Shown here piece after piece: positions 29,714 to 53,543 of a stretch of DNA of 64,000 bases. A model generated the notes under the pieces. That model had not been told where the DNA came from and did no database searches. It saw only the letters and a program-made list of their open reading frames with translations. This stretch comes from Vicinamibacterales bacterium. Lineage in GTDB: Bacteria > Acidobacteriota > Vicinamibacteria > Vicinamibacterales > CAVVIG01. The first letter of the stretch is position 1, and every line of letters starts with the position of its first letter. Both the position numbers and the translations under genes were made by a program. Location: positions 4,734 to 68,733 of the forward strand of contig DASSGK010000567.1 of NCBI GenBank assembly GCA_035693505.1. The letters are read 5' to 3'.

Positions 29714-30801
29714 TGCTGTATCACCTGCTCTACCCGTTCCACACTCAGCTGTCGGTGCTGAACGTGACGCGCTACATCACGTTCCGCACGGCCGCGTCGA
29801 CGTTGTCCGCACTCGCCATCAGTCTCGTGTTCGGACCCTGGCTGATCCGGAAGCTGCGCGAGTTCCAGATCGGGCAGGTCATCCGCACCGAAGGTCCGCA
29901 GTCTCATCGTCCGAAAGCCGGAACGCCGACGATGGGAGGTCTGCTGATCCTGACGGCGGCGCTCGTTCCGACACTGTTATGGGCCGACCTGACGAACGCG
30001 TACGTCTGGATCGCGGTGCTGACGACGGCGGGATACGGCGGCATCGGGTTTGCCGACGACTATTTGAAGATCGTGCGCCGCTCTCACCATGGCCTGCTGC
30101 CGCGCTACAAGATGGGCTGTCAACTCGCCATCGGCATCGCCGTTGGGATCGCGTTGATCATCCTGCAGCGCGAGGGCCTGTACAACACGCGCCTGGTTTT
30201 TCCATTTTTCAAGCGCCTGATTCCCGATCTCGGCTACGGCTACCTCGCGTTCGCGGTGTTCGTGCTTGTCGCGGAGTCGAACGCGGTGAACCTCACCGAT
30301 GGCCTGGACGGACTCGCGATCAGCGTGTTCGCGATTGCCGCGAGCGCGTACACGGCGCTCGCGTACGTCACCGGTCACCGCGTGTTCGCCGAGTATCTGC
30401 TGCTCGTTCGCTTTCCGCAGGCCGCCGAGCTGACGGTGTTCTGCGGATCGCTGGTCGGCGCCTCGCTGGGTTTCCTTTGGTACAACTCGTACCCGGCAGA
30501 AATATTCATGGGCGACGTCGGATCGCTGGCCCTTGGCGCCGCGCTCGGCATCGTCGCCATCCTGATCAAGCAGGAACTGCTGCTGTTGATTGTCGGCGGT
30601 GTCTTCCTGCTCGAAGCCGCGTCGGTTGTTCTCCAGGTCGGCTACTTCAAGGCGACTGGAGGTCAACGCATCTTTCGCATGGCGCCGCTGCACCACCATT
30701 TCGAACTGATCGGTTGGAGCGAGCCGAAGGTGATCACGCGCTTCGTGATCGTCGGAATCATCTTCGCGCTGTTCAGCCTTGCGACGTTGAAGCTTCGCTA
30801 G
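29713..30801 (+). CDS. mraY: phospho-N-acetylmuramoyl-pentapeptide transferase
   Basis: Polytopic membrane protein with NAVNLTDGLDGLA and MGDVGSLALG motifs. Confidence 0.95.
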   Translation: MLYHLLYPFHTQLSVLNVTRYITFRTAASTLSALAISLVFGPWLIRKLREFQIGQVIRTEGPQSHRPKAGTPTMGGLLILTAALVPTLLWADLTNAYVWIAVLTTAGYGGIGFADDYLKIVRRSHHGLLPRYKMGCQLAIGIAVGIALIILQREGLYNTRLVFPFFKRLIPDLGYGYLAFAVFVLVAESNAVNLTDGLDGLAISVFAIAASAYTALAYVTGHRVFAEYLLLVRFPQAAELTVFCGSLVGASLGFLWYNSYPAEIFMGDVGSLALGAALGIVAILIKQELLLLIVGGVFLLEAASVVLQVGYFKATGGQRIFRMAPLHHHFELIGWSEPKVITRFVIVGIIFALFSLATLKLR

Positions 30802-30871
30802 GGGCTGGGGACTTAGGGGCTAGGGACTAGGGATTTAGGGGCTAGGGCTAAGGGCTGGGGGCTAGGGCTAG
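30799..30871 (+). repeat. G-rich heptamer array (about 10 units of GGGNCTA) filling the mraY-murD spacer
   Basis: TAGGGGCTGGGGACTTAGGGGCTAGGGACTAGGGATTTAGGGGCTAGGGCTAAGGGCTGGGGGCTAGGGCTAG. It has ten G3-5 tracts and six CTAG tetramers, and starts on the mraY TAG stop. No inverted partner is present. Confidence 0.9.
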
Positions 30872-30875
30872 AAAC

Positions 30876-32237
30876 GTGGGATTCGACGTGACCAACAAAC
30901 GCGTGACCGTTGTCGGCGCAGCGAGGAGCGGCCTTGCCGCCGCCGAGTTGCTGGCGCGCCGTGGTGCGCGCGTCACGCTGTCGGATGCGCGGGCTGATGT
31001 GCCTGAAGCCGACTATCTGCGCGGACTGGGCATCGCGCTGGAGCTTGGCGGACATGTGCCGGACACGTTCACCTCGGCGGACCTCGTCGTCCTCAGCCCC
31101 GGCGTGCCGCCGGAGCAGGACGTCGTGCAGGCGGCGCGCGATCGCGGCGTTCCGGTGATCGCGGAGATCGAGCTCGCGTCGCGATGGCTCCAGGGCCGCC
31201 TCATCGCGATCACCGGCACCAAGGGGAAGTCGACGACGACGGCGCTGACTGGCCGGATTCTGGAGGCGGCGGGATTCAAAGTGACCGTGGGCGGCAACAT
31301 CGGATCACCACTGAGCGCGCAGGTGTCGGAGTCGACGCCCGAGACGTTCCATGTCGTCGAGACGAGCAGCTTTCAGCTCGAGCAGATCGACACCTTCCAT
31401 CCGTGGATCGCGGTGATGCTCAATTTCTCGCCGGATCACCTCGATCGTCATCCAGACGTCGCGGCGTACGGAGCCGCGAAGGCGCGGGTCTTCGAGAATC
31501 AGGCCGTCGGCGATTTCGCTGTGATCAATGCCGACGATCCCGCGGTCCTGGCGCTCGCGAAGAAGGGAAGGGCGGCGGCGCGGAGATTCTCGGCCAGCGG
31601 ACAAATCGACTTCGGCACGGTCGTGGACGAGGGATGGATTGTCGATCGGCAGCCGGCGCGGTCGCAGCGGCTCGTGCCACTCGACGCGATTCATCTGCTC
31701 GGTCCGCACCTGGTCAACGACGTCATGGCCGCGGCTACCGTCGGCGCGATCGCCGGTGCCGCGCCGGAAGCGATGACATCAGCCGTCGACGCGTTCCACG
31801 GTCTCGAGCACGCGATGGAGCTCGTTGCCGACGTGGACGGCGTGCGGTTCGTCAACGACTCGAAGGCGACCAACGTCGAATCGGCGCTCCGCTCGATTGA
31901 GAGCTTCGATCGGGATCTGGTGCCGATCATGGGTGGACGGTTCAAAGGCGGCGATCTCCGGCTGCTGCGCGATCCGCTGAAGGCGCGCGGGAAGGCGGTC
32001 GTGGCGATCGGAGAAGCGAGAGCGCTCCTGCGCGATGCGTTGAGCGATGTCGTACCGGTCGAAGAGGCCGACAGCTTCCCGGCGGCCATCGATCGCGCGT
32101 ACGAGCTTGCGAAGCCGTCGGGCGTGGTGCTGCTCGCCCCTGCATGCGCGAGCTTCGACATGTTCCGTGACTACGCGGAGAGGGGGCGGCGCTTCAAAGA
32201 AGAAGTGAAGCGACTCTCGAGGAGGGCTGAGAGCTAA
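30876..32237 (+). CDS. murD: UDP-N-acetylmuramoylalanine--D-glutamate ligase
   Basis: VVGAARSGLAAA Rossmann-like N-terminus, GTKGKSTTT P-loop, and dcw position. A GTG at 30888 is an alternative start. Confidence 0.95.
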   Translation: MGFDVTNKRVTVVGAARSGLAAAELLARRGARVTLSDARADVPEADYLRGLGIALELGGHVPDTFTSADLVVLSPGVPPEQDVVQAARDRGVPVIAEIELASRWLQGRLIAITGTKGKSTTTALTGRILEAAGFKVTVGGNIGSPLSAQVSESTPETFHVVETSSFQLEQIDTFHPWIAVMLNFSPDHLDRHPDVAAYGAAKARVFENQAVGDFAVINADDPAVLALAKKGRAAARRFSASGQIDFGTVVDEGWIVDRQPARSQRLVPLDAIHLLGPHLVNDVMAAATVGAIAGAAPEAMTSAVDAFHGLEHAMELVADVDGVRFVNDSKATNVESALRSIESFDRDLVPIMGGRFKGGDLRLLRDPLKARGKAVVAIGEARALLRDALSDVVPVEEADSFPAAIDRAYELAKPSGVVLLAPACASFDMFRDYAERGRRFKEEVKRLSRRAES

Positions 32238-32318
32238 GGGCTCAGGGCAGAGTCGAGGGCCACTGAGCGCTCTGCGCCAATGAGCCCTCAGCGCTAAGCC
32301 CTAAGCCCTGACAGGTTC
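32225..32318. repeat. GGCTNAG heptamer-based imperfect hairpin overlapping the murD stop
   Basis: Left arm GGCTGAGAGCTAAGGGCTCAGGGCAGAG and right arm CTCAGCGCTAAGCCCTAAGCCCTGACAG pair in a 7-nt register. The inner pair is GAGGGCCACTGAGCGC / GCGCCAATGAGCCCTC. Confidence 0.75.
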
Positions 32319-32328
32319 TATACGTCTT

Positions 32329-32449
32329 GAGCGGTGAACAGTCGTCAGTCGGTTCTCGCGGTGGAGGACTGACTGCTGGGAACCCAGGCTGCCCCGGTCT
32401 GGGAAGTTGGTGCCTCGGCCCGAGCCCGACTGATGACTGTTGACCGCTC
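32329..32449 (+). ncRNA. 121-nt stem-loop element in the murD-ftsW gap (candidate structured RNA or MITE; function unknown)
   Basis: The 24-nt arms GAGCGGTGAACAGTCGTCAGTCGG (32329-32352) and CCGACTGATGACTGTTGACCGCTC (32426-32449) are complementary at 22 of 24 positions. The 73-nt interior has further small hairpins (for example CTGGGAACCCAG). Confidence 0.35.
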
Positions 32450-32513
32450 ACGGCGATCGTATATCCGTTGCCGGGGATAGTTTCGGGACGACGAGCCAGG
32501 ATCTTTAGGAAGT

Positions 32514-33614
32514 ATGGCGAGAAAGCTGAAGTCGGACAAAGTGATGTTCATCGCGACCCTGCTGCTGGTCGCGTTGAGCGTGGTCATGGTCTACAGCGCC
32601 TCGGCGCCGATGGCCCTGGATCGCTTCGGCCGCGCGACCAGGTTTCTGACGACGCAGGCGATGTGGGCCGTGCTCGGCATCGCCATGCTCACGCTCGTGA
32701 TGCGCATCGACTATCGCCACTACCGCGAGCCGACGTTCATCTGGTGCGGCCTGGCGTTCGTTGCCTTCGCGCTCGTCTGCGTCTATTTCCGCGCGCCCGT
32801 GAACGGCGCGCGGCGGTGGTTCGGCGTCGGCGGCATTGGCGTGCAGCCATCCGAGCTCGCGAAGCTGGTCGTCATCTTCTTCATCGCCGCGCTGCTCGAA
32901 CGGCGGATGCACCGCATCGACGAGGTCACCTATTCGGTGCTGCCGATCGCGATCGTCGTGCTCGGCCTGGTTGCGTTGATTCTCCCCGAACCTGATTTCG
33001 GGACGTCGATGGCGATCCTCCTGATTGCGGCCGTCATGATTTTTGCCGCCGGGCTCAACTGGCGCTACCTCGTGGGGGTCACGCTCGCTGCGCTTCCAGT
33101 CCTCTACTTCGTGGTCATGGGCTCCGCCTATCGCCGGCGGAGGACGCTGGCGTTCCTCAACCCGTGGGACGACCCGCTTGGCGACGGTTTTCAGATCATC
33201 CAGTCGTTGATCGCGATCGGTACGGGCGGCGTGTGGGGCAAGGGGCTGATGAACGGCGTGCAGAAGCTGTTCTACCTCCCCGAACCGCACACGGACTTCA
33301 TCTACTCGGTCATCTCCGAGGAGCTCGGGCTCGTCGGCGCCACCGCCGTCGTGATCTGCTTCTGCGTCGTCACGTGGCGCGGCATGCGCGTCGCGATGCG
33401 TGCGCCCGACACCTTCGGGTCGTTTCTCGCGCTGGGCCTGACGACGATGGTCGCGGTGCAGGCGTTCGTGAACATCAGCGTGGTGCTCGGGTTGATGCCG
33501 ACGAAAGGCATTCCGCTGCCGTTCGTCAGCTCCGGCGGATCGTCACTGCTCATCAATCTGGTCGGCATGGGGATTCTGCTCAACGTCTCGCAGCACGCGT
33601 CGACAGAAGCATGA
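32514..33614 (+). CDS. ftsW: peptidoglycan glycosyltransferase FtsW (SEDS family)
   Basis: 10-TM SEDS protein with PEPHTDFIY and GIPLPFVSSGGSS motifs. AGGAAG RBS upstream. Confidence 0.95.
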   Translation: MARKLKSDKVMFIATLLLVALSVVMVYSASAPMALDRFGRATRFLTTQAMWAVLGIAMLTLVMRIDYRHYREPTFIWCGLAFVAFALVCVYFRAPVNGARRWFGVGGIGVQPSELAKLVVIFFIAALLERRMHRIDEVTYSVLPIAIVVLGLVALILPEPDFGTSMAILLIAAVMIFAAGLNWRYLVGVTLAALPVLYFVVMGSAYRRRRTLAFLNPWDDPLGDGFQIIQSLIAIGTGGVWGKGLMNGVQKLFYLPEPHTDFIYSVISEELGLVGATAVVICFCVVTWRGMRVAMRAPDTFGSFLALGLTTMVAVQAFVNISVVLGLMPTKGIPLPFVSSGGSSLLINLVGMGILLNVSQHASTEA

Positions 33615-33635
33615 AAGGGATCTGGGGCTGTTCTC

Positions 33636-34784
33636 GTGATGACCGATTCGGGCGCTTCCCGCGCGACGCAAAGTCCCACCGGCGACTTGCGTGTGGTGAT
33701 TGCCGGCGGCGGCACCGGCGGTCATCTCTATCCGGGGATCGCGGTGGCGCGCGAGCTGCTGGCAAGACGGCCTGCAGCGACGGTGACGTTTGCCGGGACG
33801 GCGCGTGGAATCGAGTCGCGCGTCGTGCCGCGCGAGGGGTTCGTGCTCGACGTGATCCGCAGCAGCGGCGTGAAGGGCAAATCCGTGTTCGATCGTGCGC
33901 GCGGTGCGGCCCTGGTGCCGATCAGCCTGATGGATGGCTGGCGGATCGTGTCGGCGCGGCGTCCGTCGCTCGTGATCGGCGTCGGCGGCTACAGCTCGGG
34001 ACCGGTCGTCATGGTCGCCGCGCTGCGCGGCGTGCCGACGATGCTGCTCGAGCAGAACGCGGTGCCCGGATTGACCAATCGATTGCTCATCCGGGTCGTG
34101 CAGGCGGCGGCGGTGACGTTCGACTCGACGCAGGCGTTGTTTGGAGAGAAAGCGTTCGTCAGCGGTAACCCGGTCCGGCCGGAGTTTTTCGCGACGTCCG
34201 GATCTCACAAGGAGTCGGCGCTCGATGACCAGACTTCCGTCACGCGGGTTTTAGTTTTTGGCGGCTCTCAGGGCGCGCACGCAATCAACGTGGCCATGGT
34301 GGAGGCAGCACCGCAGCTGGCGGCCGGCGGCTCGCATCTTCGTCTCGTTCACCAGACCGGCGAACGAGACGTGGAGATGGTGCGCGCCGCCTACCGGCAG
34401 GCGGGGCTTCAGGCCGACGTCGAGCCGTTCCTCTTCGACATGGGACGGCAGCTCGGAGAAGCGGACGTAGTCGTCTGTCGTGCCGGCGCGACGACGCTGG
34501 CCGAGATTACCGCGGCGGGAAAGGCTTCGGTGCTGATTCCGCTGCCGACGGCGACCGACGATCACCAGCGCAGGAATGCCGAAGCGCTGGTGGCCGCGGG
34601 CGCCGCGGATTTGCTGCTGCAGCGCGAGCTGACGGGCGCAGCGCTGGCGGCGCGCGTCCTCGCGCTGGCGGGCGATCGCGGCAAGCGAGAGCGCATGTCG
34701 GCGAACGCGCGCACGCTCGCAAGGCCCGACGCGGCGCGAGTGATCGTCGATCGAGCGTTGCAGCTCGCGGGGCAGGGATCGTGA
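33636..34784 (+). CDS. murG: undecaprenyldiphospho-muramoylpentapeptide beta-N-acetylglucosaminyltransferase
   Basis: GGGTGGHLYPGIAVA G-loop and a GT28 C-terminal domain (RAGATTLAEI). Confidence 0.95.
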   Translation: MMTDSGASRATQSPTGDLRVVIAGGGTGGHLYPGIAVARELLARRPAATVTFAGTARGIESRVVPREGFVLDVIRSSGVKGKSVFDRARGAALVPISLMDGWRIVSARRPSLVIGVGGYSSGPVVMVAALRGVPTMLLEQNAVPGLTNRLLIRVVQAAAVTFDSTQALFGEKAFVSGNPVRPEFFATSGSHKESALDDQTSVTRVLVFGGSQGAHAINVAMVEAAPQLAAGGSHLRLVHQTGERDVEMVRAAYRQAGLQADVEPFLFDMGRQLGEADVVVCRAGATTLAEITAAGKASVLIPLPTATDDHQRRNAEALVAAGAADLLLQRELTGAALAARVLALAGDRGKRERMSANARTLARPDAARVIVDRALQLAGQGS

Positions 34785-34786
34785 CG

Positions 34787-34932
34787 GGTGCTGGGTTCAG
34801 CGTGCCGAGTTCAGGGTTCGTTCGCAGTTCGGGGTTCGGGGTTCGGGATTCGAAAGAACGCTGCACCCTGCACTCGGAACCCGGAACCCTGGACGAATGC
34901 TGCACTTTGAACCCTGAACCAGGAACCCGACT
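34787..34932. repeat. GGGTTCR heptamer-based imperfect hairpin filling the murG-murC spacer
   Basis: The left arm is G/T-rich (…GAGTTCAGGGTTCGTTCGCAGTTCGGGGTTCGGGGTTCGGG). The right arm is the imperfect complement (…CTCGGAACCCGGAACCCTGG…TTTGAACCCTGAACCAGGAACCCG). Confidence 0.8.
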
Positions 34933-34941
34933 GGTGACAGC

Positions 34942-36423: not shown

Positions 36424-37268
36424 GCGCCGTCGCCGCTCAGACCGATCGCCGATTCCGGAGGGCGCACGTGAAACCAGCGCGCCGGAAGAAGAGCTGGCGC
36501 GGCTTGCTCGTGCCGTTGCTGATCTGGGTCACCCTGACGCCGGCGTTGATCTTCGGCGCCTACCGCAGCGTGGCGATGGCCGCGCACGCGCACGTCCTGC
36601 AGGTCGACAAGATCGCGGTGCACGGCAACGAGCGGCTGTCGAAGGAAGACGTGATCGCGGTGCTCAGCGGGCTGCGCGGCGAGAACATCATCTGGACCGA
36701 CCTCGAGCACTGGCGCACCCGGCTGAAAGCGTCCCCCTGGGTGCGGGACGCCGTGATGCGCCGTTCGCTGCCGTCGACGGTCGACGTCTTCGTCTCCGAG
36801 CGCGAGCCGATCGGCATCGGCCGCATCCACTCGGACATGTACCTCGTCGACGAGCGGGGCGTCATCATCGATCAGTACGGTCCCCAGTACGCGGATCTGG
36901 ACCTGCCGATCATCGACGGCCTCTCGGCGGCGCCCGGCGAGAACGGCGCGCTGACCGATGAAGGCCGCGCGGATCTCGCCGCACGGGTGATCGCCGCCGT
37001 GAAATCGAAGCCGGCCATCGCCAAGCGCCTGTCGCAGGTCGACGTGTCCGATGCGCACAACGCCTCGGTGATCCTCAACAGCGATCCCGCGATGATTCAG
37101 CTCGGCGAGGACCAGTTCCTCGCACGGCTGCAGTCGTACCTCGATCTGGCGCCCGCGTTGCGCGAGCGCGTGACCGACATCGACTACGTCGATCTGCGGT
37201 TCGACGATCGCATCTACGTAAGACCGACCAAAGGAAGTCAGAAGTTACAAGGTAGAAGGCAGAAGTAA
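36420..37268 (+). CDS. ftsQ: cell division protein FtsQ
   Basis: N-terminal TM segment (LLVPLLIWVTLTPALIFGAY), POTRA-like region (IAVHGNERLSKEDV), and dcw position. The GTG start overlaps the murC stop (GTGA). Confidence 0.9.
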   Translation: MSAVAAQTDRRFRRAHVKPARRKKSWRGLLVPLLIWVTLTPALIFGAYRSVAMAAHAHVLQVDKIAVHGNERLSKEDVIAVLSGLRGENIIWTDLEHWRTRLKASPWVRDAVMRRSLPSTVDVFVSEREPIGIGRIHSDMYLVDERGVIIDQYGPQYADLDLPIIDGLSAAPGENGALTDEGRADLAARVIAAVKSKPAIAKRLSQVDVSDAHNASVILNSDPAMIQLGEDQFLARLQSYLDLAPALRERVTDIDYVDLRFDDRIYVRPTKGSQKLQGRRQK

Positions 37269-37288
37269 GAAGGCAGAAGTTAGAACGC
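37233..37288 (+). repeat. Purine-rich heptamer array (8 units of AGAAGKN) spanning the ftsQ stop codon
   Basis: GGAAGTC AGAAGTT ACAAGGT AGAAGGC AGAAGTA AGAAGGC AGAAGTT AGAACGC. It encodes the FtsQ tail KGSQKLQGRRQK and contains its TAA stop. AAGTCAGAAGTTA is shared with 53511-53523. Confidence 0.85.
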
Positions 37289-37310
37289 AGCGCAGGCCTG
37301 CGGGTCTGCC

Positions 37311-38564: not shown

Positions 38565-38599
38565 AGCGGGCTTCCAGCACCGCTGCATAGGAGCGATGA

Positions 38600-39982: not shown

Positions 39983-40032
39983 CGGCGTTCTCGGTGGTAG
40001 AGTAGATAGATCCACGGCACACGAGAACGCCG
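39983..40032 (+). terminator. stem-loop downstream of ftsZ (possible terminator; no U-tract)
   Basis: CGGCGTTCTCG (39983-39993) pairs perfectly with CGAGAACGCCG (40022-40032). The 28-nt loop contains a smaller GTGG/CCAC stem. Confidence 0.35.
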
Positions 40033-40091: not shown

Positions 40092-41837
40092 ATGAATTCC
40101 TGGGAACAGCGCGAACGCGCACAGCTCACCCTTTCGAAAGAAGTCGGCTACGTCAAGAAGCCGCACGGCAGCCGCCTGCGCGTCGCCCTGGCGTTTCCAA
40201 ACACGTACTGGGTCGGGATGTCGAATCTCGGCTTCCAGACCATCTACCGGCTCTTCAACGCCGAAGACGACATCGTCTGCGAGCGGTTCTTTCTGCCGCC
40301 GAAGCAGGAGCTTGCCGCGATGTCTTCGGCGAAATCGCCGCTCCTGACGCTGGAATCACAAACGCCGGTCGGCGACTTCGACGTGGTGGCGTTCTCCGTC
40401 TCCTTCGAGTGGGACTACGTGAACGTGCTCACGCTGCTGCGCCTCGCCGGCATTCCTGCCTACGCCGCCGAGCGCTCGTCGCGTCATCCGCTGATTGTCG
40501 TCGGCGGCGCGGTGACGTTCGTCAACCCTGAACCGCTCGCGCTGTTCGCCGACGTGATTGCCGCCGGCGAAGGCGAAGTGCTCGTGCCCGGCCTTCGCCG
40601 CTCGGTTGCGGCCGCCGCCGACCGAGATCACCTGCTGCAACTCCTCGCCGCGGAGCGCGGCTTCTACATTCCCGCCTTCTACGAGCCGCGCTACGCCGCC
40701 GACGGGACGCTGGCGGGATACGCCGTGCGCGAAGGCATCGACGCTCCGGCGATCGTGAAGAAGGCGGCGCTGAAGGTGACCGACGCGGTCGATCCACCGG
40801 CGACCGGCATCTTCACTCCCGACACGGAATTCGGATCGCGCTTTCTGGTCGAAGTCGTTCGCGGCTGCGCGAACCTCTGCCGCTTCTGCTGGGCGGGCTA
40901 CAACTATCTACCCGTCCGTGCGTTCCCCGCCGATCGGATCCTGCAGCTCGCGCGAGAGGCGCGGGTACATTCGAACCGGGTCGGCCTTGTCTCGATTGCA
41001 CTCTGCGATCATCCCGAGATCGATCGCATTCTCGCGAACCTTCTCGAGATGGGGTACGCCATCAGCCCCGCGTCTTTACGGCTGGACGATCTCACGCAGT
41101 CGATCGTCCAGGTGCTGACGGCGAGCGGCGAGCGAACGATCACCATCGCGCCGGAGACCGGTTCCGATCGCCTGCGCCGCGTGATCAACAAGACGGTGAC
41201 CAACGACGAAATCCTCGATCGCGCCGATTTGATCTTCGCGAACGGCATCGAGAACCTGAAGCTCTACTACATGATCGGCCTCCCCACCGAGACGGACGAA
41301 GACCTGGTGGCGATTCGGGATCTCACCCTCCAGATCCGCGATCGCATGTTGAAGTACGCGCGCTCCAAGGGACAGGTCGGCCGGATTGTCGGCAGCGTGA
41401 ACCCGCTGATTCCCAAACCCGGCACCGCGTACCAGTGGATCCCGATGGAGGACCCGGCCGTGATCGATCGCAAGATCAAACGGCTGCGGTCGCTCACCGC
41501 CGACATCGACAACGTCTACTTCAACATCAAGTCGGAGCGGCACTCCTACTTCCAGGCGCTGCTGTCGCTCGGCGACCGTCGCGTGGCGCCGGCGATTGCC
41601 ATCGCCGAACAGAACGGACAGAACTGGCGCGCCGCCGTCGCCGACGCGGGCATCGACGGCGACTTTTACATCTTCCGCGACCGCAGCAAGGACGCCGCGC
41701 TGCCGTGGGACATCATCGACGGCGGCATGAAGCGCTCGTTCTTCGAGGCCGAGTACGGCAAGAGCCTTCGAGAGGAGTGGACGCTCCCACCCAAGCGCGC
41801 GCAGGAGAACGCCAAGCTACTGCCGGTAATTCAGTAG
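40092..41837 (+). CDS. B12-binding-domain radical SAM protein (TIGR03960-like)
   Basis: LRVALAFPNTYWVGMSNLGFQTIY N-terminal domain and the CANLCRFCWAGY CxxxCxxC cluster motif. A GTG at 40068 is an alternative start. Confidence 0.8.
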   Translation: MNSWEQRERAQLTLSKEVGYVKKPHGSRLRVALAFPNTYWVGMSNLGFQTIYRLFNAEDDIVCERFFLPPKQELAAMSSAKSPLLTLESQTPVGDFDVVAFSVSFEWDYVNVLTLLRLAGIPAYAAERSSRHPLIVVGGAVTFVNPEPLALFADVIAAGEGEVLVPGLRRSVAAAADRDHLLQLLAAERGFYIPAFYEPRYAADGTLAGYAVREGIDAPAIVKKAALKVTDAVDPPATGIFTPDTEFGSRFLVEVVRGCANLCRFCWAGYNYLPVRAFPADRILQLAREARVHSNRVGLVSIALCDHPEIDRILANLLEMGYAISPASLRLDDLTQSIVQVLTASGERTITIAPETGSDRLRRVINKTVTNDEILDRADLIFANGIENLKLYYMIGLPTETDEDLVAIRDLTLQIRDRMLKYARSKGQVGRIVGSVNPLIPKPGTAYQWIPMEDPAVIDRKIKRLRSLTADIDNVYFNIKSERHSYFQALLSLGDRRVAPAIAIAEQNGQNWRAAVADAGIDGDFYIFRDRSKDAALPWDIIDGGMKRSFFEAEYGKSLREEWTLPPKRAQENAKLLPVIQ

Positions 41838-41953
41838 GGCATTGAGTAATTGGGTAATCTGGTAATTGGGTAATGGTTGGGTGATTGCCAATCAACTACC
41901 CGACGATCCGATTACCCGATTACCCGATTATCCAATTCCCCAATTACCAGCTG
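41838..41953. repeat. TGGGTAA heptamer-based imperfect hairpin between convergent genes
   Basis: Left arm GAGTAATTGGGTAATCTGGTAATTGGGTAATGGTTGGGTGATTG. Centre GATTG-C-CAATC at 41883-41893. Right arm CAACTACCCGACGATCCGATTACCCGATTACCCGATTATCCAATTCCCCAATTAC. It fills the whole gap between two stop codons. Confidence 0.85.
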
Positions 41954-42250: not shown

Positions 42251-42405
42251 CGTCATGCCGCCGGAATCATCAAGGCGCATGCCGGTTGCATGATTCGAAC
42301 GGCGATGCCGCAAGGGGAAGCGAACGTTGATGTTGATGGATCGGGACAGGCGGACTGCTCGTGGGGGGCGCGAAGAGACGGCGGAGAATGCCAACCGGCG
42401 TTGCG

Positions 42406-43613: not shown

Positions 43614-43652
43614 GGCCTGCATCGGATGAAAACGTTTTCGGCGTTCGATGAG

Positions 43653-44890: not shown

Positions 44891-44904
44891 GAGTCCTTTG
44901 GGGC

Positions 44905-44932
44905 AAAAAAAAGGCCCCGCCGAAGCGGAGCC
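44905..44932 (-). terminator. Rho-independent terminator downstream of tRNA-Met
   Basis: On the minus strand: GGCUCCGC-UUCG-GCGGGGCC followed by U8. The stem is 8 bp with one G-U pair and a UUCG tetraloop. Confidence 0.8.
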
Positions 44933-45045
44933 TGAATTCTACACGTTGTGATGACCGTGTCCGCCTTCGCCGCCTTGCGGCTTCGGCGCGACACCTTCGC
45001 GTGGGCTTGCCACGCCGAAGCTCGCGCGGCAAGCGCGAGCGAAGG

Positions 45046-45118
45046 TGGGCCCACCAGGATTCGAACCTGGAACAGGCCGGTTATGAGCCGGCGGCTCTAA
45101 CCGTTGAGCTATGGGCCC
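45046..45118 (-). tRNA. tRNA-Met (anticodon CAT), elongator-type or possibly tRNA-Ile2
   Basis: The reverse complement folds as a cloverleaf: GGGCCCA TA GCTC AACGGTTA GAGC C GCCGG CTCATAA CCGGC CTGTT CCAGG TTCGAAT CCTGG TGGGCCC A. The G1-C72 pair argues against an initiator tRNA. CCA is not fully encoded (ACCt). Confidence 0.9.
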
Positions 45119-45122
45119 TTGG

Positions 45123-45206
45123 GAAGTATGAAGGAAGAAGTTAGAAGTGAGAAGGAAGAACTTTCCCGCTTCCACTTCTAACTTCTTCCTTCTCCCTTCT
45201 ACCTTC
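45123..45206. repeat. GAAGKNA heptamer hairpin immediately after rpoD (probable terminator)
   Basis: Perfect 20-bp stem between GAAGGAAGAAGTTAGAAGTG (45130-45149) and CACTTCTAACTTCTTCCTTC (45173-45192). Both arms are tandem heptamers. The pyrimidine arm runs into the rpoD stop codon. Confidence 0.85.
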
Positions 45207-46989
45207 ATGAAGTGCGTCCTTCGAGGAACGCCCGAAGTTTGCGCGACCGCGACGGATGCCGCAGCTTGCGCAGCGCCTTGGCTTCGATCTGACGGATGCG
45301 CTCGCGCGTGACCGCGAAGCTCTGGCCGACTTCTTCGAGCGTGTGCTCGCTGCCGTCGCCGACGCCGAACCGCATCTTGATGACTTTTTCCTCGCGCGGC
45401 GTGAGCGTCTTCAGCACCGATTCGGTCTGTTCCTTGAGATTCAGGTTGATGACCGCTTCGGCCGGCGACACCACCTGCCGATCCTCGATGAAGTCGCCAA
45501 GATGCGAATCTTCCTCCTCGCCGATCGGTGTTTCGAGCGAGATGGGCTCCTGCGCGATCTTCAGCACCTTGCGGACCTTCGAGACCGGGATGTCCATCCG
45601 CTTGGCGATCTCTTCAGAGGTCGGTTCGCGTCCAAGCTCCTGCACCAGCGCGCGAGAGGTTCGAATCAACTTGTTGATCGTCTCGATCATGTGGACCGGG
45701 ATGCGGATCGTCCGCGCCTGGTCGGCGATCGCGCGCGTGATGGCCTGGCGGATCCACCAGGTTGCGTACGTCGAGAACTTGTAGCCGCGGCGGTACTCGA
45801 ACTTGTCGACCGCCTTCATCAGGCCGATGTTGCCTTCCTGAATCAGGTCGAGGAACTGCAGTCCGCGGTTGGTGTACTTCTTTGCGATCGACACGACGAG
45901 GCGCAGGTTGGCTTCGACGAGCTCTTTCTTCGCCTGCTCGGCCTGGTACTCGCCGCGCAGAATCACGTCGAGCGTCTGCTTCAACTCGTCCGGCGACTGC
46001 TCGAGACTGTCGGTGATGCCCTTGATCTTGAGCTTCAGCTCCTTGATCTGGCGCTGGATGTTCTTCTTTTCCTCGTCCTTCAGCTTCGACTTCTTGTTCT
46101 TCGGGTTCAGCAGCCGCTCGTTCGCGTCGACCTCGCGCTGCACCGCGCGCACGCTCTCGACGGCATCTTTCATGTCCTCGATCAGGCGCCGCTTGACCGA
46201 TTCGGTGAACTCGATCTTCCGGATGTAGTTCGACAGCTCCACCTGCGCGCGCATCGTCTGCCACTTGCACTTGCGGTACTTGCGCTTGTCGCGGCTGGTC
46301 GTGCCTTTCGGCGTCTCCTGGAGCTTCTCGTCGAGTTTCTCGTAGACGGCGCGGGCGCGGCGGACTGCGTCGATCTGCTTCTGCACCTGCTTCGAGCGCT
46401 CGACGATGCGCTCGTCGGTGATTTCCTCGTCGTTGAAGATCACCAGTTCGCGGATCGTGCGGTCGCCGGTGTGCAGCTGGTCGCCCAGGTGGATGACCTT
46501 CTTCGAAATCAGCGGCGTGCGCGAGATCGACTTGATGACCGCCAGCTTGCCTCGCTCGATGCGGCGGGCGATTTCGACTTCGCCCTCGCGCGTCAGCAGC
46601 GGCACGGTGCCCATCTCGCGGAGGTACATCCGGACGGGGTCGTTGGTCTTGTCGAGCGCTCCTGGTGTGAGATCGAGCTCGAGCTCTTCCGCGCCTTCCG
46701 CGGTGCGGTCGATCGGCTTGACGTCGTCGCGCAGATATTTCTGATCGGAGTCGATGACTTCGATGCCCGCGCTGCCGAACGTGTTGAACAGATCGTCCAG
46801 CTCGTCGGGCGACGTGATGTCGGCCGGCAGGAGCTCGTTCACCTCGTCGTAGAGGAGATAGCCCTTCTCCTTGCCGATATTGATGAGCTGCCGAACCTCG
46901 TCGTATTTCTCCTCGATCGAGAGGTGCGGGGCGCCGGGCGCTACGTCAGTTCCTCGATGCGATGGAGTAGGTCTTTTTTCCGCTGCCAT
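45205..46989 (-). CDS. rpoD: RNA polymerase sigma factor RpoD (sigma-70)
   Basis: Regions 1.1 to 4.2 are present ([48 protein letters not shown]; [20 protein letters not shown]). Confidence 0.97.
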
Positions 46990-48713: not shown

Positions 48714-48720
48714 CAGTCGA

Positions 48721-51105
48721 TCATTCCTTGAGCTCCACGACCGTGACGCCGCCGCCGCCCTGTTCCGGGGGCGCTGTTGCAAATCTCGCGACCAACGGGT
48801 GCTGCTGCAGAAAGCCGGTAAGCGCGCGCTTCAACTGACCGGTGCCGTACCCGTGAATCAAACGGATGACGCGTTGATCCGTGAGCAGCGACTCGTCGAG
48901 AAAACGCTCGGCGCGCGTCAACGCTTCATCGACGGTGCAGCCGATCACGTTCAGATCCAGCGCGGTCGTCTCGCGCGGCTGAAGTTCGACGTTGACGTTG
49001 ACGCGAGGCGCAGCCGGCTGGCCTCCGATAATTCGGAGGTCGCGGATGCTCGCGCGCATGCGCTTGCCTCGGACGTCGAGTTCGGCGGTGCCGTCGTGGA
49101 CGGCAGTCACCGTTGCTTCGAGGCCGAGGCCGCCGACTATTACGCGACAACCGACGACGACATGGCTCAAGGCGGAGGGCTGAGGGCTCAGGGCTGAGGG
49201 CTCAGGAATCGCCTCACCGGCGTTCGCGCGCGCCGCGATCGCATCGACGGCGTTGCGCGCGTCGCTGCGTGCCGTGCCGGCGTCGCCGGTCGACACCAGC
49301 CGCGGCGCCTTAGCCATCGCGTCTGCTTTTGCCTTCAGCGCGGCGATGACTTCGTCGATCTCCTTGCGGGCTTGACGCACCTGTGTGTTCAACTCGTCGT
49401 TCAGCCGGCGCTTGAACGTTTCCTCACGCTGGTGCAGCGCGTTCTCGCGGTGCTGCATCCGCGATTCGGCGTCCTTCAAGGTCTCGCGCTCGCGTGCCGC
49501 GAGGCGCTGCTCGTGCTCGAGCGCGCGCATGTCGCGATCGATCTTCGCCAGATGCTCGGCGAGTTGAGCCTCGCGCGCGCTCAGGTTGTCGCGCGCGGCG
49601 GCGACAACGGCGGGGTTCAGGCCAAGCCGCCCGGCGATCTCGAGCGCCAGGCTCCGTCCGGGGCTGCCGTAGATCAACTGGTAGGTCGGCTCGAATGTCG
49701 TCAGCTCGAAACCGAACGCCGCGCTCGCGACGCCCTCCGTCGTTGACGCGTACGTCTTCAGCTGGTCGTAGTGGCTCGTTGCGATCACGGTCGCGCCGCG
49801 GCGCCGGAAGTGATCCACGATGGCCACGCCGAGCGCGCCGCCTTCGATCGGATCGGTTCCCGACCCGACTTCGTCGAGCAGCACGAGCGCAGGCGTGACC
49901 AGCCCACGGTCCATCGACGCAATGTTCGTGATGTGCGCCGAGAAGGTGCTCAGGCTGGCTTCGATCGATTGCTCGTCGCCGATGTCGGCGAACAGCGACC
50001 GGAACACCGGCAGCTGCGACCCATGCGCGGCAGGAATGCGAAGACCGGCCTGCATCATGATGGCGAGTAACCCTGCCGTCTTCAATGCAACGGTTTTGCC
50101 GCCCGTGTTGGGGCCGGTGACGAGCAGGATGGTCGCCGGCGGGATCACCTTGATCGTGACCGGGACAGGGTTTTTCAGCAGCGGGTGTCGGGCCGCCTGC
50201 AGTTCGAAGGCGCCATCGGTTGAAATCCGCGGCTCGGCGCCGTCGATCGACTGGGAGAACCGGGCGCGTCCCTGCCTGATGTCGAGCTCGGTCGCCGCCT
50301 CGATCGTCCGCTCCATCTCGCCGGCGCGGCGTCGGAACGCATCGGTCAGGGCGAGCAGAATTCTCCGGACCTCTTCGGCCTCCTGCTCTTCGAGTGCGAC
50401 GATGTCGTTGTTGATCTCGACGGTGCTCAACGGCTCGAGAAACAGGCTGGCGCCGCTGGTCGACGTGCCGTGAACGATGCCGGGGATGCCGCTGCGATGC
50501 TCGGCCTTCACGAGCAGGACGTACCGGCCATTCCGTTCCGAGACGACCTGATCCTGGAGGTATTTCGCGGTCTCCTTGCCTCGCAGGTACGACTCGAGCG
50601 TGCTCCGCAGGCGCGTCTTCTGCTTGCGGACCCGTTCGCGAATCAGCCGCAACTCCGGGCTGGCGTGATCGACGACCTCACCCGACGGGTCGATCTTCTC
50701 GCGCACTTGAGCCGACTCGCCCTTGAACGACGCGGCGCCCGCAGCGACGGCCTCGAGCAGCGGAAAGGCTTCGGGAGCGCGGCGGATGCTGGCGCGCGAT
50801 TCGTCAATCGAATCGAGAAACGTCGCGAGCCCCAGCAGCCGAAGCGATTCGAGCGCCCGTCCCTGGACCCCGAGCGCCTCGAGAATCGCCGGCAAATCGC
50901 TCGAGGCGCGCAGCGGAAACAGGCCGTGAGCCGTTACGAACCGCACGGTCTCGCTCGTCGCGGCCTGCCAGTCGGCGACCTGCTGCGGATCGGTGGACGG
51001 CGCCAGCCGCGACAGCCGCTCGGCGCCCATGGGCGTTACGGCGAAGCCGGCGACGGCTTCCACAATGCGGTCGAATTCGAGAGCCCGAAGGGCGCCTTGT
51101 TGCAT
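48721..51105 (-). CDS. mutS2: endonuclease MutS2 (MutS domain plus C-terminal Smr)
   Basis: This is the real part of the 1520-aa track ORF, running from MQQGALRALEFDRIV (ATG at 51105) for 794 aa. GPNTGGKT Walker A and Smr domain LIHGYGTGQLK. Confidence 0.9.
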   Translation of the reverse strand: MQQGALRALEFDRIVEAVAGFAVTPMGAERLSRLAPSTDPQQVADWQAATSETVRFVTAHGLFPLRASSDLPAILEALGVQGRALESLRLLGLATFLDSIDESRASIRRAPEAFPLLEAVAAGAASFKGESAQVREKIDPSGEVVDHASPELRLIRERVRKQKTRLRSTLESYLRGKETAKYLQDQVVSERNGRYVLLVKAEHRSGIPGIVHGTSTSGASLFLEPLSTVEINNDIVALEEQEAEEVRRILLALTDAFRRRAGEMERTIEAATELDIRQGRARFSQSIDGAEPRISTDGAFELQAARHPLLKNPVPVTIKVIPPATILLVTGPNTGGKTVALKTAGLLAIMMQAGLRIPAAHGSQLPVFRSLFADIGDEQSIEASLSTFSAHITNIASMDRGLVTPALVLLDEVGSGTDPIEGGALGVAIVDHFRRRGATVIATSHYDQLKTYASTTEGVASAAFGFELTTFEPTYQLIYGSPGRSLALEIAGRLGLNPAVVAAARDNLSAREAQLAEHLAKIDRDMRALEHEQRLAARERETLKDAESRMQHRENALHQREETFKRRLNDELNTQVRQARKEIDEVIAALKAKADAMAKAPRLVSTGDAGTARSDARNAVDAIAARANAGEAIPEPSALSPQPSALSHVVVGCRVIVGGLGLEATVTAVHDGTAELDVRGKRMRASIRDLRIIGGQPAAPRVNVNVELQPRETTALDLNVIGCTVDEALTRAERFLDESLLTDQRVIRLIHGYGTGQLKRALTGFLQQHPLVARFATAPPEQGGGGVTVVELKE
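49165..49206. repeat. Six GCTNAGG heptamers (42 nt, 14 codons) in frame inside mutS2
   Basis: GCTCAAG GCGGAGG GCTGAGG GCTCAGG GCTGAGG GCTCAGG on the plus strand. I checked the codon boundaries against the mutS2 frame; it is translated on the minus strand as PEPSALSPQPSALS. Confidence 0.9.
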
Positions 51106-51138
51106 TTGAGGGGGAACCCTCAATACTACCGTACAGAC

Positions 51139-51226
51139 AGGGGCTAGGGACTGGGGACTAGGGGCTAGAAAAAAAGAAAAAGCGCCTGGCCTCAAGCTAG
51201 CCCCGAGTCCCGAGCGCCCAGCCCCT
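51139..51226. repeat. GGGNCTA heptamer hairpin after larB, overlapping its stop codon
   Basis: The left arm AGGGGCTAGGGACTGGGGACTAGGGGCTAG (51139-51168) pairs imperfectly with CTAGCCCCGAGTCCCGAGCGCCCAGCCCCT (51197-51226). The A-rich 28-nt loop is T-rich on the larB sense strand. Confidence 0.85.
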
Positions 51227-51986
51227 ACAAGTGATTGATCAGCGAGGCAATTGAAGCGGCCCCGAACCCGTTGTCGATGTTGACCACCGACACGCCGGAC
51301 GCGCAGCTGTTCAACATGCCCAACAGCGCGGCAATGCCGCCGAAGCTGGCGCCGTAGCCGATGCTGGTGGGGACCCCGATCACCGGCACGCTGACCAGGC
51401 CCGCGACCACGCTGGGCAGCGCGCCTTCCATCCCGGCGACGACGATGATGACGCGCGCGGCCGCGAGGCGTTCGCGCTCTCCCAGCAGCCTGTGAATACC
51501 AGCCACGCCGACGTCGTACAGGCGGCCGACCTCGTTTCCCATCAATTCGGCGGTGAGCGCCGCCTCTTCGGCAACCGGCAAATCCGACGTCCCGGCGGCG
51601 GCGACGAGGATGGTGCCCCGGCCCGGGCTCACGTCTTGCTGGCGAAGCGTGATGAGAGCGGCATCGGCATGGTAAACGGCACTCGGGACAGCGGCTCGGA
51701 CGGCCTCGTAGGAGGCGCTGCTCGCGCGTGTGACCAGCAGCGTCGAGCCGCGGGCTACGATTTCCTGCGCGATCGCCGCGATCTGGGCCGGCGTCTTCCC
51801 AAGGCCAAGGACGACTTCCGGAAAACCCTGGCGGAGCGATCGGTGGTGATCGACGCGCGCAAATCCCAGATCCTTGAAGGGTTGCGCACGCATCGCCTCC
51901 AGCAGCCGCTCCTTGGCGATCGCCGGATCGAGTGCGCCGGACGCGACCTGATCGATCAGATCCTGGAGCTGTTTGTTTGACGTCAT
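51225..51986 (-). CDS. larB: nickel-pincer cofactor biosynthesis protein LarB (NaAD carboxylase/hydrolase, PurE-like)
   Basis: About 250 aa with a PurE-like C-terminal domain (ILVAAAGTSDLPVAEEA...VIIVVAGMEGALPSVVAGL...VIGVPTSIGYG) and the typical LarB N-terminal extension. Confidence 0.8.
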   Translation of the reverse strand: MTSNKQLQDLIDQVASGALDPAIAKERLLEAMRAQPFKDLGFARVDHHRSLRQGFPEVVLGLGKTPAQIAAIAQEIVARGSTLLVTRASSASYEAVRAAVPSAVYHADAALITLRQQDVSPGRGTILVAAAGTSDLPVAEEAALTAELMGNEVGRLYDVGVAGIHRLLGERERLAAARVIIVVAGMEGALPSVVAGLVSVPVIGVPTSIGYGASFGGIAALLGMLNSCASGVSVVNIDNGFGAASIASLINHL

Positions 51987-52041
51987 CGAATACCCAACAG
52001 TACAATAACTGCTTGTGCCGGTGGGGGTTCCACCTTAAACC

Positions 52042-53538
52042 ATGACGCCAGCTGAAACCCTCACCCTCGCCGCATATTTCTTCGTCGTCATCGTGCTCGC
52101 CATCTACGGATGGCACCGGTACTACCTCGTGTACCTCTACATGAGTAACCGGGACAAAGAGCCGCAACTCGGCCGCCCGCTCGATCCGCTGCCGATCGTG
52201 ACCATCCAGCTTCCGCTCTACAACGAGATGTACGTCGCGGAGCGCCTGATCGACGCGGTGTGCGCGATCGACTATCCGCGGCACCTGCTCGAGATTCAGG
52301 TACTGGACGACTCGACCGACGAGACGCGCAATATCGCCGAGCTGGCCGCCCGCCGCTACGCCGACGAAGGCATCGATATCAAATACATTCACCGTATCGA
52401 TCGCGTCGGATTCAAGGCCGGCGCGCTCGAGGCCGGGCTGAAGATCGCCCGCGGGGAATTCGTCGGCATTTTCGACGCTGACTTCATCCCGACCACCGAT
52501 TTCCTGACAAGGCTGCTGCCGCATTTCGCCGATCCGAAGGTCGGGATGGTGCAGGCGCGCTGGGGGCACATCAACCAGGACTACTCGCTGCTCACGAAGA
52601 TCCAGGCGATCCTGCTCGACGGCCATTTCATTCTCGAACACGGCGGCCGCAACCGCGGCGGGCGTTTCTTCAATTTCAACGGCACCGCCGGCGTGTGGCG
52701 GCGAACCGCAATCGACGAGGCTGGCGGGTGGCAGCACGACACCCTCACCGAAGATCTCGATCTGAGCTACCGCGCGCAGCTCGCGGGCTGGCAGTTCGTG
52801 TTCGTCCCGGGCCTGATTGCGCCCGCGGAAGTGCCCGTCGAAATGAACGCCTTCAAGTCGCAGCAGCACCGCTGGGCCAAGGGTTCCATCCAGACCTGCC
52901 GGAAGCTGCTGCCGCGGATCCTGAAATCGAACCTGCCGATCGGCGTGAAGGCCGAGGCGTTCTTTCACCTGACGGCGAACTTTAACTACATCCTGATGTG
53001 CATCCTGTCCATCCTGATGTTCCCGTCGATGGTGATCCGCTACAACATGGGCTGGTACGAGATGATCCTCATCGACGTCCCCCTGTTCTTCGCCGCGACC
53101 TTTTCGTTCTGCAATTTCTACATGGTGTGTCAGCGTGAACTGCACAAGGACTGGGTGTCGCGCCTGAAGTACGTGCCGTTCCTGATGTCGGTCGGAATCG
53201 GGCTGTCGGTCAACAACACCCGCGCCGTGTTCGAAGCGCTGTTCAACAAGAAAAGCGAATTTACGCGGACGCCCAAGTACCACATCGAAGGCGACGGCGA
53301 CGAGTGGGTCGGCAAGAAGTACCGGCAGTCGGTTGCCGTGCAGCCGCTGGTCGAGCTGGCGCTGGGCCTGTACTTCACGTGGACGGTCTTCTACGCGCTC
53401 GCCAACGGCATCTATGCGACCATCCCGTTCCTGGTCCTCTTCCAGGTGGGTTTCCTCTACACGGGCCTGCTCTCGATCGTGCAGCAGTACGCGAGCTCGG
53501 TCGGTCTTGAAAGTCAGAAGTTAGAGGTTAGAAGTTAG
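52042..53538 (+). CDS. membrane-embedded processive-type GT2 (cellulose-synthase-like / CslA-MGlcDG-synthase-like)
   Basis: N-terminal TM, QLPLYNE, VLDDSTDET, FDADF, TEDLDLSYR and the QQHRWAKG (QxxRW) motif, plus C-terminal TM helices. Confidence 0.85.
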   Translation: MTPAETLTLAAYFFVVIVLAIYGWHRYYLVYLYMSNRDKEPQLGRPLDPLPIVTIQLPLYNEMYVAERLIDAVCAIDYPRHLLEIQVLDDSTDETRNIAELAARRYADEGIDIKYIHRIDRVGFKAGALEAGLKIARGEFVGIFDADFIPTTDFLTRLLPHFADPKVGMVQARWGHINQDYSLLTKIQAILLDGHFILEHGGRNRGGRFFNFNGTAGVWRRTAIDEAGGWQHDTLTEDLDLSYRAQLAGWQFVFVPGLIAPAEVPVEMNAFKSQQHRWAKGSIQTCRKLLPRILKSNLPIGVKAEAFFHLTANFNYILMCILSILMFPSMVIRYNMGWYEMILIDVPLFFAATFSFCNFYMVCQRELHKDWVSRLKYVPFLMSVGIGLSVNNTRAVFEALFNKKSEFTRTPKYHIEGDGDEWVGKKYRQSVAVQPLVELALGLYFTWTVFYALANGIYATIPFLVLFQVGFLYTGLLSIVQQYASSVGLESQKLEVRS

Positions 53539-53543
53539 AAGTG
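53509..53543 (+). repeat. AGAAGTT heptamer array bridging the GT2 stop and the DUF362 start
   Basis: GAAAGTC AGAAGTT AGAGGTT AGAAGTT AGAAGTG. The TAG stop (53536-53538) and the GTG start (53541) both lie inside heptamer units. Confidence 0.85.

Follow-up and report, generated by a model that had tools for sequence, protein, structure and literature searches.

Gene content and placement of the locus

The 64,000-nt stretch analysed here (the window: Vicinamibacterales bacterium assembly GCA_035693505.1, contig DASSGK010000567.1, positions 4,734 to 68,733) carries a division and cell wall (dcw) gene cluster whose gene boundaries are occupied by tandem arrays of short, mostly 7-nt units, and these arrays are the subject of the present work. 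Pfam searches delineated mraY, murD, ftsW, murG, murC, ftsQ, ftsA, ftsZ and a B12/radical-SAM gene on the plus strand, and genes for ACPS and a CT398-like zinc-ribbon protein, rpoD, dnaG, mutS2 and an AIR-carboxylase/LarB-like gene (larB) on the minus strand, along with a GT2 gene followed by a DUF362 gene on the plus strand. A tRNA-Met gene lies at 45044-45118 on the minus strand. The minus-strand open reading frame (ORF) at 41954-42394, which converges on the radical-SAM gene, encodes 146 aa and gave no Pfam match at E <= 0.001, and the label 'SpoVG-like' that it bore in the initial annotation could not be verified; only a 108-aa version of it is annotated by metagenome gene callers.

A MurC-based scan of species-representative genomes placed the source among Vicinamibacterales-like Acidobacteriota, the nearest relative being a metagenome-assembled genome (MAG; L017) with 84% MurC identity, while a Luteitalea MAG showed 70%. 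The gene order from murE to rpoD is conserved. The analysis covered the window, dcw-centred loci of relatives and conspecific strain contigs of about 20 kb. Relatives were represented by 80 fetched dcw loci (labelled L001 etc.), in which gene starts are tblastn estimates, and the strain contigs were retrieved by exact-protein lookup with FtsW and LarB; the same lookup with MurG returned no match, probably owing to the choice of start codon.

Tandem arrays at the gene boundaries

Tandem Repeats Finder and a lag-match scan (28-nt windows, self-match >=68%, locally shuffled sequence as control) recovered arrays at all nine loci that the initial annotation had located within about 23 kb, and two further loci were found outside that range, at 60085-60340 and 12790-12827 (Table 1). 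Its description of the nine as uniformly heptameric stands except for 41838-41953, which has a period of 8, and 30797-30871, which mixes 7- and 8-nt units. With period 7, the lag-match scan detected 11 array segments, while the shuffles averaged 0.1; with period 8 it detected two against 0.0, and the maximum for any other period between 2 and 16 was three. At a looser threshold, 13 of the 20 period-7/8 arrays were mostly intergenic, which corresponds to a roughly 5.7-fold enrichment given that only 11.4% of the window is non-coding, and the arrays of period 6 and 9 were mostly coding, as expected of multiples of three. Four loci within the 64 kb have GGGGCTA-type units and three have AGAAGNN units.

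RNA folding bore out the division of the arrays into five loci with an array followed by its inverted copy and three single-armed loci. The five hairpins reach -46 to -71 kcal/mol with z scores of -2.8 to -6.6 and 28-53 pairs, and a run of 20 nt (GAAGGAAGAAGTTAGAAGTG) is the same in both arms of the rpoD hairpin. No structure was predicted for the three single-armed arrays. The intragenic array in mutS2 was likewise confirmed to measure exactly 42 nt, i.e. six units.

The arrays are closely tied to gene ends, as had been proposed. Arrays enclose the stops of mraY, murD, ftsQ and GT2, and the stops of murG, the radical-SAM gene, the 146-aa ORF, rpoD and larB are 0-2 nt away from one, in agreement with the earlier statement that arrays hold or touch the stops of mraY, ftsQ, GT2 and larB and the DUF362 start. 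Among the dcw-junction arrays of the window and its relatives taken together, 22 of 36 start at most 5 nt from the upstream stop or overlap it. Gene callers have to be used with caution here, since the arrays provide genes with stops, C-terminal tails and seeming starts. The suggestion that the units carry stop triplets by design was contradicted: 25 of 71 period-7 consensus units contain a stop triplet on the plus strand against 22.5 in base-permuted units (p = 0.25), and, whereas most units were said to carry such a triplet, only about one unit arm in two does, a frequency not above that expected from composition.

Table 1. Tandem arrays of the window, their position relative to genes, predicted RNA folding and length variation among conspecific strains (SNP, single-nucleotide polymorphism)
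Locus	Coordinates	Strand	Form and units	Gene context	Fold (kcal/mol; z)	Variation among strains
mraY-murD	30797..30871	+	single-armed, G-rich GGGGCTA/GGGACTA, some 8-nt units, ~10.7 copies	mraY stop TAG (30799-30801) within array; array ends 4 nt before murD GTG (30876)	no hairpin; z -0.8	62, 82, 96, 103 nt
murD 3' end	32223..32318	+	hairpin; left arm GGGCTGA/GGGCTAA/GGGCTCA, right arm TNAGCCC units	murD stop TAA (32235-32237) within left arm	-50.7; z -2.8	78, 85, 92 nt with 2-4 GGGCTCA units (nine other spanning strains); window only, 107 nt with added 36-nt imperfect inverted left-arm copy that completes the hairpin
murG-murC	34787..34932	+	hairpin; GGGTTCR units and complement YGAACCC	starts 2 nt past murG stop (34782-34784)	-70.7; z -3.5	equal length in all ten strains
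ftsQ-ftsA	37233..37288	+	single-armed, purine-rich AGAAGKN	codes final 12 FtsQ residues (KGSQKLQGRRQK) and stop (37266-37268); upstream of ftsA (37311)	unstructured; z +0.9	almost constant: one 4-nt deletion, one SNP
radical-SAM / 146-aa ORF	41838..41953		hairpin of octamers (ATTGGGTA / GATTACCC)	fills convergent spacer between radical-SAM stop (41835-41837) and 146-aa ORF stop (41954-41956)	-54.9; z -6.6	132, 141 (two kinds), 157 nt; change in right-arm GATTACCC units only
rpoD 3'	45119..45210	-	hairpin; GAAGNNA units and complement	rpoD stop 45205-45207; hairpin ends exactly at tRNA-Met 5' end (45118)	-45.7; z -6.5	same length in six strains, one SNP
mutS2 linker	49165..49206	-	intragenic; six GGGCTSA units, 42 nt	codes PEPSALSPQPSALS between MutS_V (residues 343-524) and Smr (from 733) domains		none (eight strains)
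larB-mutS2	51134..51230	-	hairpin; GGGGCTA/GGGACTN units and complement	larB stop 51225-51227; mutS2 start 51105	-55.0; z -5.4	121, 122, 129 nt; longest with one additional GGGGCTA unit in a single arm
GT2-DUF362	53509..53543	+	single-armed AGAAGTT	codes GT2 tail ESQKLEVRS and stop TAG (53536-53538); overlaps DUF362 GTG (53541)	unstructured; z +2.0	none (nine strains)
extra locus	60085..60340	-	~255-nt composite hairpin; outer arms of ~8-nt purine-rich units (ACGGAGGA...) and complement	in 284-nt spacer of two minus-strand genes	-178 (sense strand)	same length in three strains, one SNP
extra locus, weak	12790..12827		AATTGCA, ~5 copies	within coding region of minus-strand gene 12432-13802	no structure; z +0.6	

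Whole-unit alleles among conspecific strains

The arrays were found at identical places in 20 conspecific contigs that were assembled independently from at least 10 soil and rhizosphere metagenome samples, and the ten FtsW contigs that were measured are 98.6-99.0% identical to the window. Although simple repeats can be collapsed or mis-extended by short-read assemblers, the presence of the same arrays with discrete unit alleles in all these contigs, between intact flanking genes, excludes an assembly artefact; analogous arrays also occur in many other MAGs, and the probability that we are dealing with artefacts of assembly or sequencing is practically nil.

Alignment of orthologous arrays, which had been proposed as a test of gain and loss of units by slippage, gave a positive outcome, with alleles differing by whole units at several loci (Table 1). 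The arrays hence change by replication slippage in whole-unit steps and behave as variable-number tandem repeats (VNTRs), and, with head-to-tail 7-nt units beyond chance length, a preference for intergenic sites and whole-unit copy-number polymorphism, they show the properties of long simple sequence repeats (SSRs). The conspecific contigs reveal the gain of an inverted arm as well: the inverted insert of the window at 32258-32293 is without counterpart in the nine other strains that span the murD 3' end. Elevated divergence at the arrays, together with gain or loss of an inverted arm, thus occurs within a single species, and the arrays can serve as hypervariable markers for strain typing of soil Acidobacteriota.

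The murG-murC array, which does not vary in length, differs from the window in all ten strains by about 13% substitutions (an estimate from the sequences). The divergent tract at 34745-34935 comprises the last ~6 murG codons and the whole array, the ten strains being near-identical mutually, and the divergence flanking the array or averaged over the genome is about 1.2%. This pattern points to a recombination tract or to local hypermutation.

Recent insertion at junctions that are contiguous in relatives

The mraY-murD junction, which holds a 74-nt array in the window, is at most 14 nt long in the 11 other Vicinamibacterales where it was measurable, murG and murC overlap or almost touch in most relatives, and ftsQ and ftsA are separated by 0-4 nt or overlap in eight of the 12 relatives compared. 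As these junctions are so short or overlapping in relatives, comparison of the orthologous loci indicates that the arrays were inserted recently at formerly contiguous or overlapping junctions and created the spacers, of which they form most or all. The nearest relative, L017, lacks four of the five arrays that fall within its span, among them the murD 3' hairpin and the radical-SAM hairpin, and its radical-SAM gene and the convergent ORF are about 15 nt apart judging from tblastn matches; FtsQ residues 272-282 found no match in it. Only the murG-murC array is common to both, being shorter in L017 and built from the same GGTTCA/TGAACC unit as in the window. Independent gains were seen elsewhere: the ftsQ-ftsA junction of L008 carries a GGGCTCC hairpin, and the spacer past rpoD contains arrays of other units in L009 and L070, which in L007 and L010 lie just beyond the tRNA.

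Among the 80 dcw loci, period-7 arrays were present in many Vicinamibacterales and denser in Pyrinomonadaceae (Blastocatellia), with up to seven per 20 kb, and they also occurred in some Nitrospira and Geobacter loci; none was detected in the Myxococcota, Syntrophales or most Desulfuromonadales loci of this set. The long dcw spacers of Acidobacteriota often have a period-7/8 score of >=0.8, while most other bacteria sampled have junctions of at most 30 nt. Many arrays in the relatives are again hairpins of an array and its inverted copy, and the units are unrelated across loci and genomes (GGTTTCA, AGACCAA, AGTAGTC, GCGGAAT, GGGCAAA and others). The occurrence of unrelated units in the same kind of spacer, also in Blastocatellia, Nitrospira and Geobacter, indicates that a common process rather than a common sequence lies behind the arrays. 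The window offers a natural experiment, in which one uncultured soil species has recently received about ten arrays in essential-gene junctions that are gap-free in its relatives.

Transcription termination and rival sequence-based roles

A terminator-like function had been assigned to the hairpins in the initial annotation, and long stable stem-loops directly past the stops of murD, murG, the radical-SAM gene, rpoD and larB, one of them at a typical terminator site between convergent genes, agree with it. The hairpins share the GC-rich stem-loop of Rho-independent terminators, but their 28-53 pairs are far more than is typical and they are without a U-tract: no T run follows any of the five, and none was reported by a terminator scan of the window. 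A canonical intrinsic terminator with a 9-bp GC stem and T8 is used instead at 44933-44912 (minus strand), about 110 nt downstream of the tRNA-Met gene. It appears that rpoD, its hairpin and tRNA-Met share one transcript, which terminates only past the tRNA. Of the five hairpins, three moreover stand inside operons, upstream of ftsW, murC and mutS2, close relatives keep the same operon without them, and the strain alleles change in one arm only. A role of the hairpins as Rho-independent terminators or attenuators is therefore very unlikely.

Formation of G-quadruplexes (G4) in DNA or RNA, comparable to the GGGAATC repeats of Xanthomonas and GGGGAYT of Nostoc, would offer another regulatory role. 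By the criterion of at least four G3+ tracts 1-7 nt apart, four of the five motifs in the 64-kb window fall in arrays (30801-30867, 49177-49200, 51140-51164 and 51201-51225), thus in the mraY-murD array, on the plus strand of the mutS2 array and on both strands of the larB hairpin, and the G3-4N3-4 structure of the units is as described previously (PMC4692102). A GGG run is, however, present in just 15 of the 71 period-7 units of the window and related loci, the AGAAGKN, ATTGGGTA and AATTGCA arrays are incapable of G4 formation, and the G-rich arms of the hairpins are predicted to be base-paired with their complementary arms instead. We consider G-quadruplexes improbable as the role of the arrays; as a general explanation they were rejected on account of the few units with GGG, and they could apply at most to a subset.

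Likewise, the arrays could serve as binding sites for a protein with a 7-nt register, such as a cold-shock-type OB-fold or a nucleoid protein, three units of 7 nt being 21 bp or two helical turns. Tandem Repeats Finder scored super-periods of 21-22 nt or 24 nt above the basic period at four loci, and CspB binds heptamer repeats with low specificity (PMC4679880). Such super-periods are equally expected from slippage of several units at a time, the units differ wholly between loci and genomes so that there is no common recognition sequence, and no candidate protein was identified, all of which leaves this explanation hardly credible.

Orientation of the arrays and their possible role in mRNA

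The arrays of the window and the related dcw loci follow a marked orientation. In the hairpins, counts of which include some phylogenetic non-independence, the 5' arm has more G than C in 24 cases and more C than G in two, with one tie; when the four orthologous copies of one conserved element are counted as one, the ratio is about 21 to 2 (p ~7e-5). Replication GC skew does not explain this order of arms because a hairpin reads alike on both strands. The single arrays in dcw operons are similarly richer in G than C on the sense strand (19:6, p = 0.015), as is the first array of the spacer in 27 of 34 cases. Among the 36 dcw junctions with arrays, the array is nearer the upstream stop in 23 and nearer the next start in 10 (p = 0.035), for which the simplest explanation is that expansion is tolerated up to or into the 3' end of a gene and not into the translation signals of the next. 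The single arms of the window reach the following start codon or stop 0-22 nt short of it, whereas the hairpins leave at least 28 nt to such a codon or lie between convergent genes; this fits a removal of hairpins that occlude ribosome-binding sites and is suggestive at n = 8. The order of arms, the G-richness of the sense strand and the abutment on stops are new descriptive regularities, and the orientation rules provide simple, falsifiable constraints on any mechanistic model.

The transcription factor Rho prefers C-rich, G-poor and unstructured RNA, so orientations with the C-rich arm first would be expected to cause polarity in essential operons and to be purged. Alternatively, the arm order would follow from a directional mutation if inverted copies were invariably placed on the 3' side of a G-rich array.

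The same regularities have a bearing on whether the arrays are selected intercistronic RNA elements. Hairpins resembling repetitive extragenic palindromic (REP) sequences and bacterial interspersed mosaic elements (BIMEs) would then shield the upstream cistron against 3'-to-5' degradation or serve as marks of processing sites, while the purine-rich single arms would act as unstructured leaders with Shine-Dalgarno-like motifs and slippage would tune operon stoichiometry. The hairpins do begin at stop codons with the G-rich arm first, the single arms adjoin start codons and are unusually unstructured, and unrelated arrays were repeatedly gained at the murD-ftsW, murG-murC and rpoD 3' junctions across classes of Acidobacteriota. 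The rpoD hairpin also adjoins the RNase P site of tRNA-Met, past which alone the canonical terminator is found, and heptad-like stems recur in the conserved murD-ftsW RNA described below. Against such a role, four of the five arrays in the span of L017 are absent there, the lengthening of one arm in strain alleles yields bulged hairpins, and a test of selection at the RNA level found the sense fold more stable in 13 cases and the antisense in six, a trend that was not significant. Selection for RNA elements remains a minority explanation that we regard as rather unlikely, though it and the slippage explanation set out below are not mutually exclusive.

Conserved RNA-like element upstream of ftsW

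The spacer between murD and ftsW also contains, at 32329-32452 on the plus strand, a 125-nt structured RNA-like element that is conserved in the window and in 19 related loci of Vicinamibacteria-type genomes (L001-L003, L005-L011, L014-L019, L021, L070). RNAalifold predicted 47 pairs, 26 of which show compensatory double changes, with many G-U pairs on the plus strand, and an internal loop (GCUGGGAAC) is almost invariant. A covariance model scored 101-136 bits on the plus strand against 27-46 on the minus strand. The outer stem (GAGCAGT GAGCAGT CATCAGY) is heptad-periodic, and the model weakly matches heptamer hairpins in L030 and L029. Rfam gave only the tRNA-Met for the whole window at the gathering score, and with laxer filters the region 32200-32530 yielded only chance miRNA matches; no family was assigned to the arrays or to the element at either setting. 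The element is a candidate new cis-acting RNA upstream of ftsW and is possibly a heptamer hairpin that has become fixed.

Probable origin by slippage, inverted duplication and selection at gene boundaries

The arrays are best explained, in our judgement with good though not full confidence, as slippage-driven heptamer and locally octamer SSR/VNTR arrays that underwent inverted duplication and were filtered by selection at gene boundaries. The data show that replication slippage produces the arrays and alters them by whole units, and that they were inserted recently at junctions where genes were once contiguous or overlapping. At the hairpin loci a degenerate array would have been copied in inverted form beside itself, probably by intramolecular template switching; we infer this because the two arms share the order of their unit variants and because the strain-specific 36-nt inverted insert completes a hairpin.

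Selection would act as a filter on these products. Arrays would persist only where genes are undamaged and the ribosome-binding region of the next gene is intact, reaching the end of the preceding gene or overlapping its last few codons, and those near start codons would stay single-armed and unstructured. The surviving orientation would give a transcript that is G-rich and then C-rich, which would keep C-rich RNA from Rho. Incidentally, upstream mRNAs may gain 3'-end stability from the RNA hairpins; the rpoD message, for example, would end in a hairpin once RNase P has cut at tRNA-Met. On this account the array hairpins are neither dedicated terminators nor individually essential. An origin from mobile elements resembling miniature inverted-repeat transposable elements (MITEs) or REPs was rejected, as the units are locus-specific and change in unit steps.

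Several points weigh against slippage and filtering as a complete account. The recurrence of independent arrays at murD-ftsW, murG-murC and the rpoD 3' end in distant lineages, and the strength of the G-first rule, both suggest selection beyond mere tolerance; the conserved murD-ftsW RNA with its heptad-periodic outer stems may mean that at least one hairpin has turned functional. Slippage leaves the unit size of 7 nt unexplained, template switching and the avoidance of Rho are inferences, and the account is drawn from about 64 kb and dcw-region loci. A bolder proposal would be that the array hairpins constitute a selected, lineage-wide means by which Acidobacteriota provide intercistronic RNA structure, with arrays generated by slippage and inverted duplication and the G-rich-first orientation kept because it avoids Rho loading; the hairpins would set mRNA 3'-end stability and cistron ratios in essential operons, and occasionally one would become fixed as a conserved RNA, for which the 125-nt murD-ftsW element is the candidate. 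We consider this proposal doubtful; if it were true, strain-resolved soil metagenomes would make the 7-nt preference of intergenic repeats directly testable.

Comparison with known repeat systems

Short tandemly repeated repetitive (STRR) sequences were defined for heterocystous cyanobacteria, where few named unit families occur in about a hundred copies. The assignment of the present arrays to an STRR-like class of tandem heptamers is supported, as both are tandem intergenic heptanucleotides with several unit families per genome, although the present taxon belongs to Acidobacteriota with Vicinamibacterales MAGs as its nearest relatives and its units are more locus-specific. With REPs and BIMEs, which can act as mRNA 3'-end stabilisers, the hairpins share the form of imperfect palindromes just past stops, both within operons and at their ends. 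The REPs form one dispersed family with a single conserved sequence, which is mobilised by the REP-associated tyrosine transposase (RAYT), whereas the present hairpins consist of locus-specific tandem units that change by slippage, with no single conserved palindrome.

Heptamers form the most abundant class of intergenic short tandem repeats across prokaryotes, and neither what they do nor why the period is a prime number has an evident explanation in the literature (Mori 2018, PMC6344855). As cited in later work, they are over-represented among the long SSRs of many bacterial genomes, for which polymerase slippage was proposed (Mrazek, Guo & Shah 2007 via PMC4692102, PMC4679880). The present arrays agree with these prokaryotic long SSRs in being tandem 7-nt repeats beyond chance length that are intergenic, have many units per genome and change length by slippage, but differ in that no description for Acidobacteriota was found; our literature searches retrieved no paper in which heptanucleotide or heptamer repeats are linked to Acidobacteria. 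The GGGAATC repeats of Xanthomonas and the GGGGAYT repeats of Nostoc (Rehm et al. 2015, PMC4692102) are, like ours, G-rich intergenic heptamers with G-quadruplex potential and some convergent inverted stem-loop pairs, and at a given junction their length and sequence vary among close relatives; those genomes have one dominant unit, whereas the present arrays comprise many units, most of them incapable of G4 formation. A Nostoc preprint describes regulatory effects of heptamer repeats near promoters.

Short intergenic tandem heptamers with a proposed regulatory role are also represented by the TAACTGA direct repeats of marine Beggiatoaceae (MacGregor 2015, PMC4679880) and by the annotated heptanucleotide elements of Geobacter metallireducens, repeated four to five times (PMC2700814). 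These are single-unit families of 2-6 copies located mainly upstream of starts, in contrast to the present arrays, which are longer, have varied units, abut stops and are often inverted; among our Geobacter loci one array lies at the murG-murC junction (L025) and another nearby in the dcw cluster (L041). The novelty attributed to the arrays in the initial annotation was consequently overstated, since intergenic heptamers and inverted array pairs were already known (PMC6344855, PMC4692102). The class is known; to it our data add strain-resolved whole-unit alleles, insertion at essential-gene junctions that were once contiguous, and the G-first order of arms, of which no report was seen in PMC6344855, PMC4679880 and PMC4692102. 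We regard the arrays as the acidobacterial counterpart of the cyanobacterial STRRs and of the prokaryote-wide excess of heptamers.

Minor elements of the window

In the composite hairpin at 60085-60340, the interior of the palindrome consists of a GC-rich stem and a central AT-rich hairpin. The membership of the 12790-12827 array in the family is uncertain; its host gene encodes a probable membrane protein (...YQFAISNWQFSIDLW...), and although the length of the array is not a multiple of three the frame stays open. The spacer between ftsZ and the radical-SAM gene holds a box (GGTGGTAGAGTAGATAGATCCACGGCA) at 39993-40019, which is kept in all 11 relatives whose spacer was displayed and is placed between the arms of a short inverted repeat (CGGCGTTCTCG...CGAGAACGCCG), within its loop. 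The box is possibly a promoter, or else a small RNA element, that precedes the radical-SAM gene.

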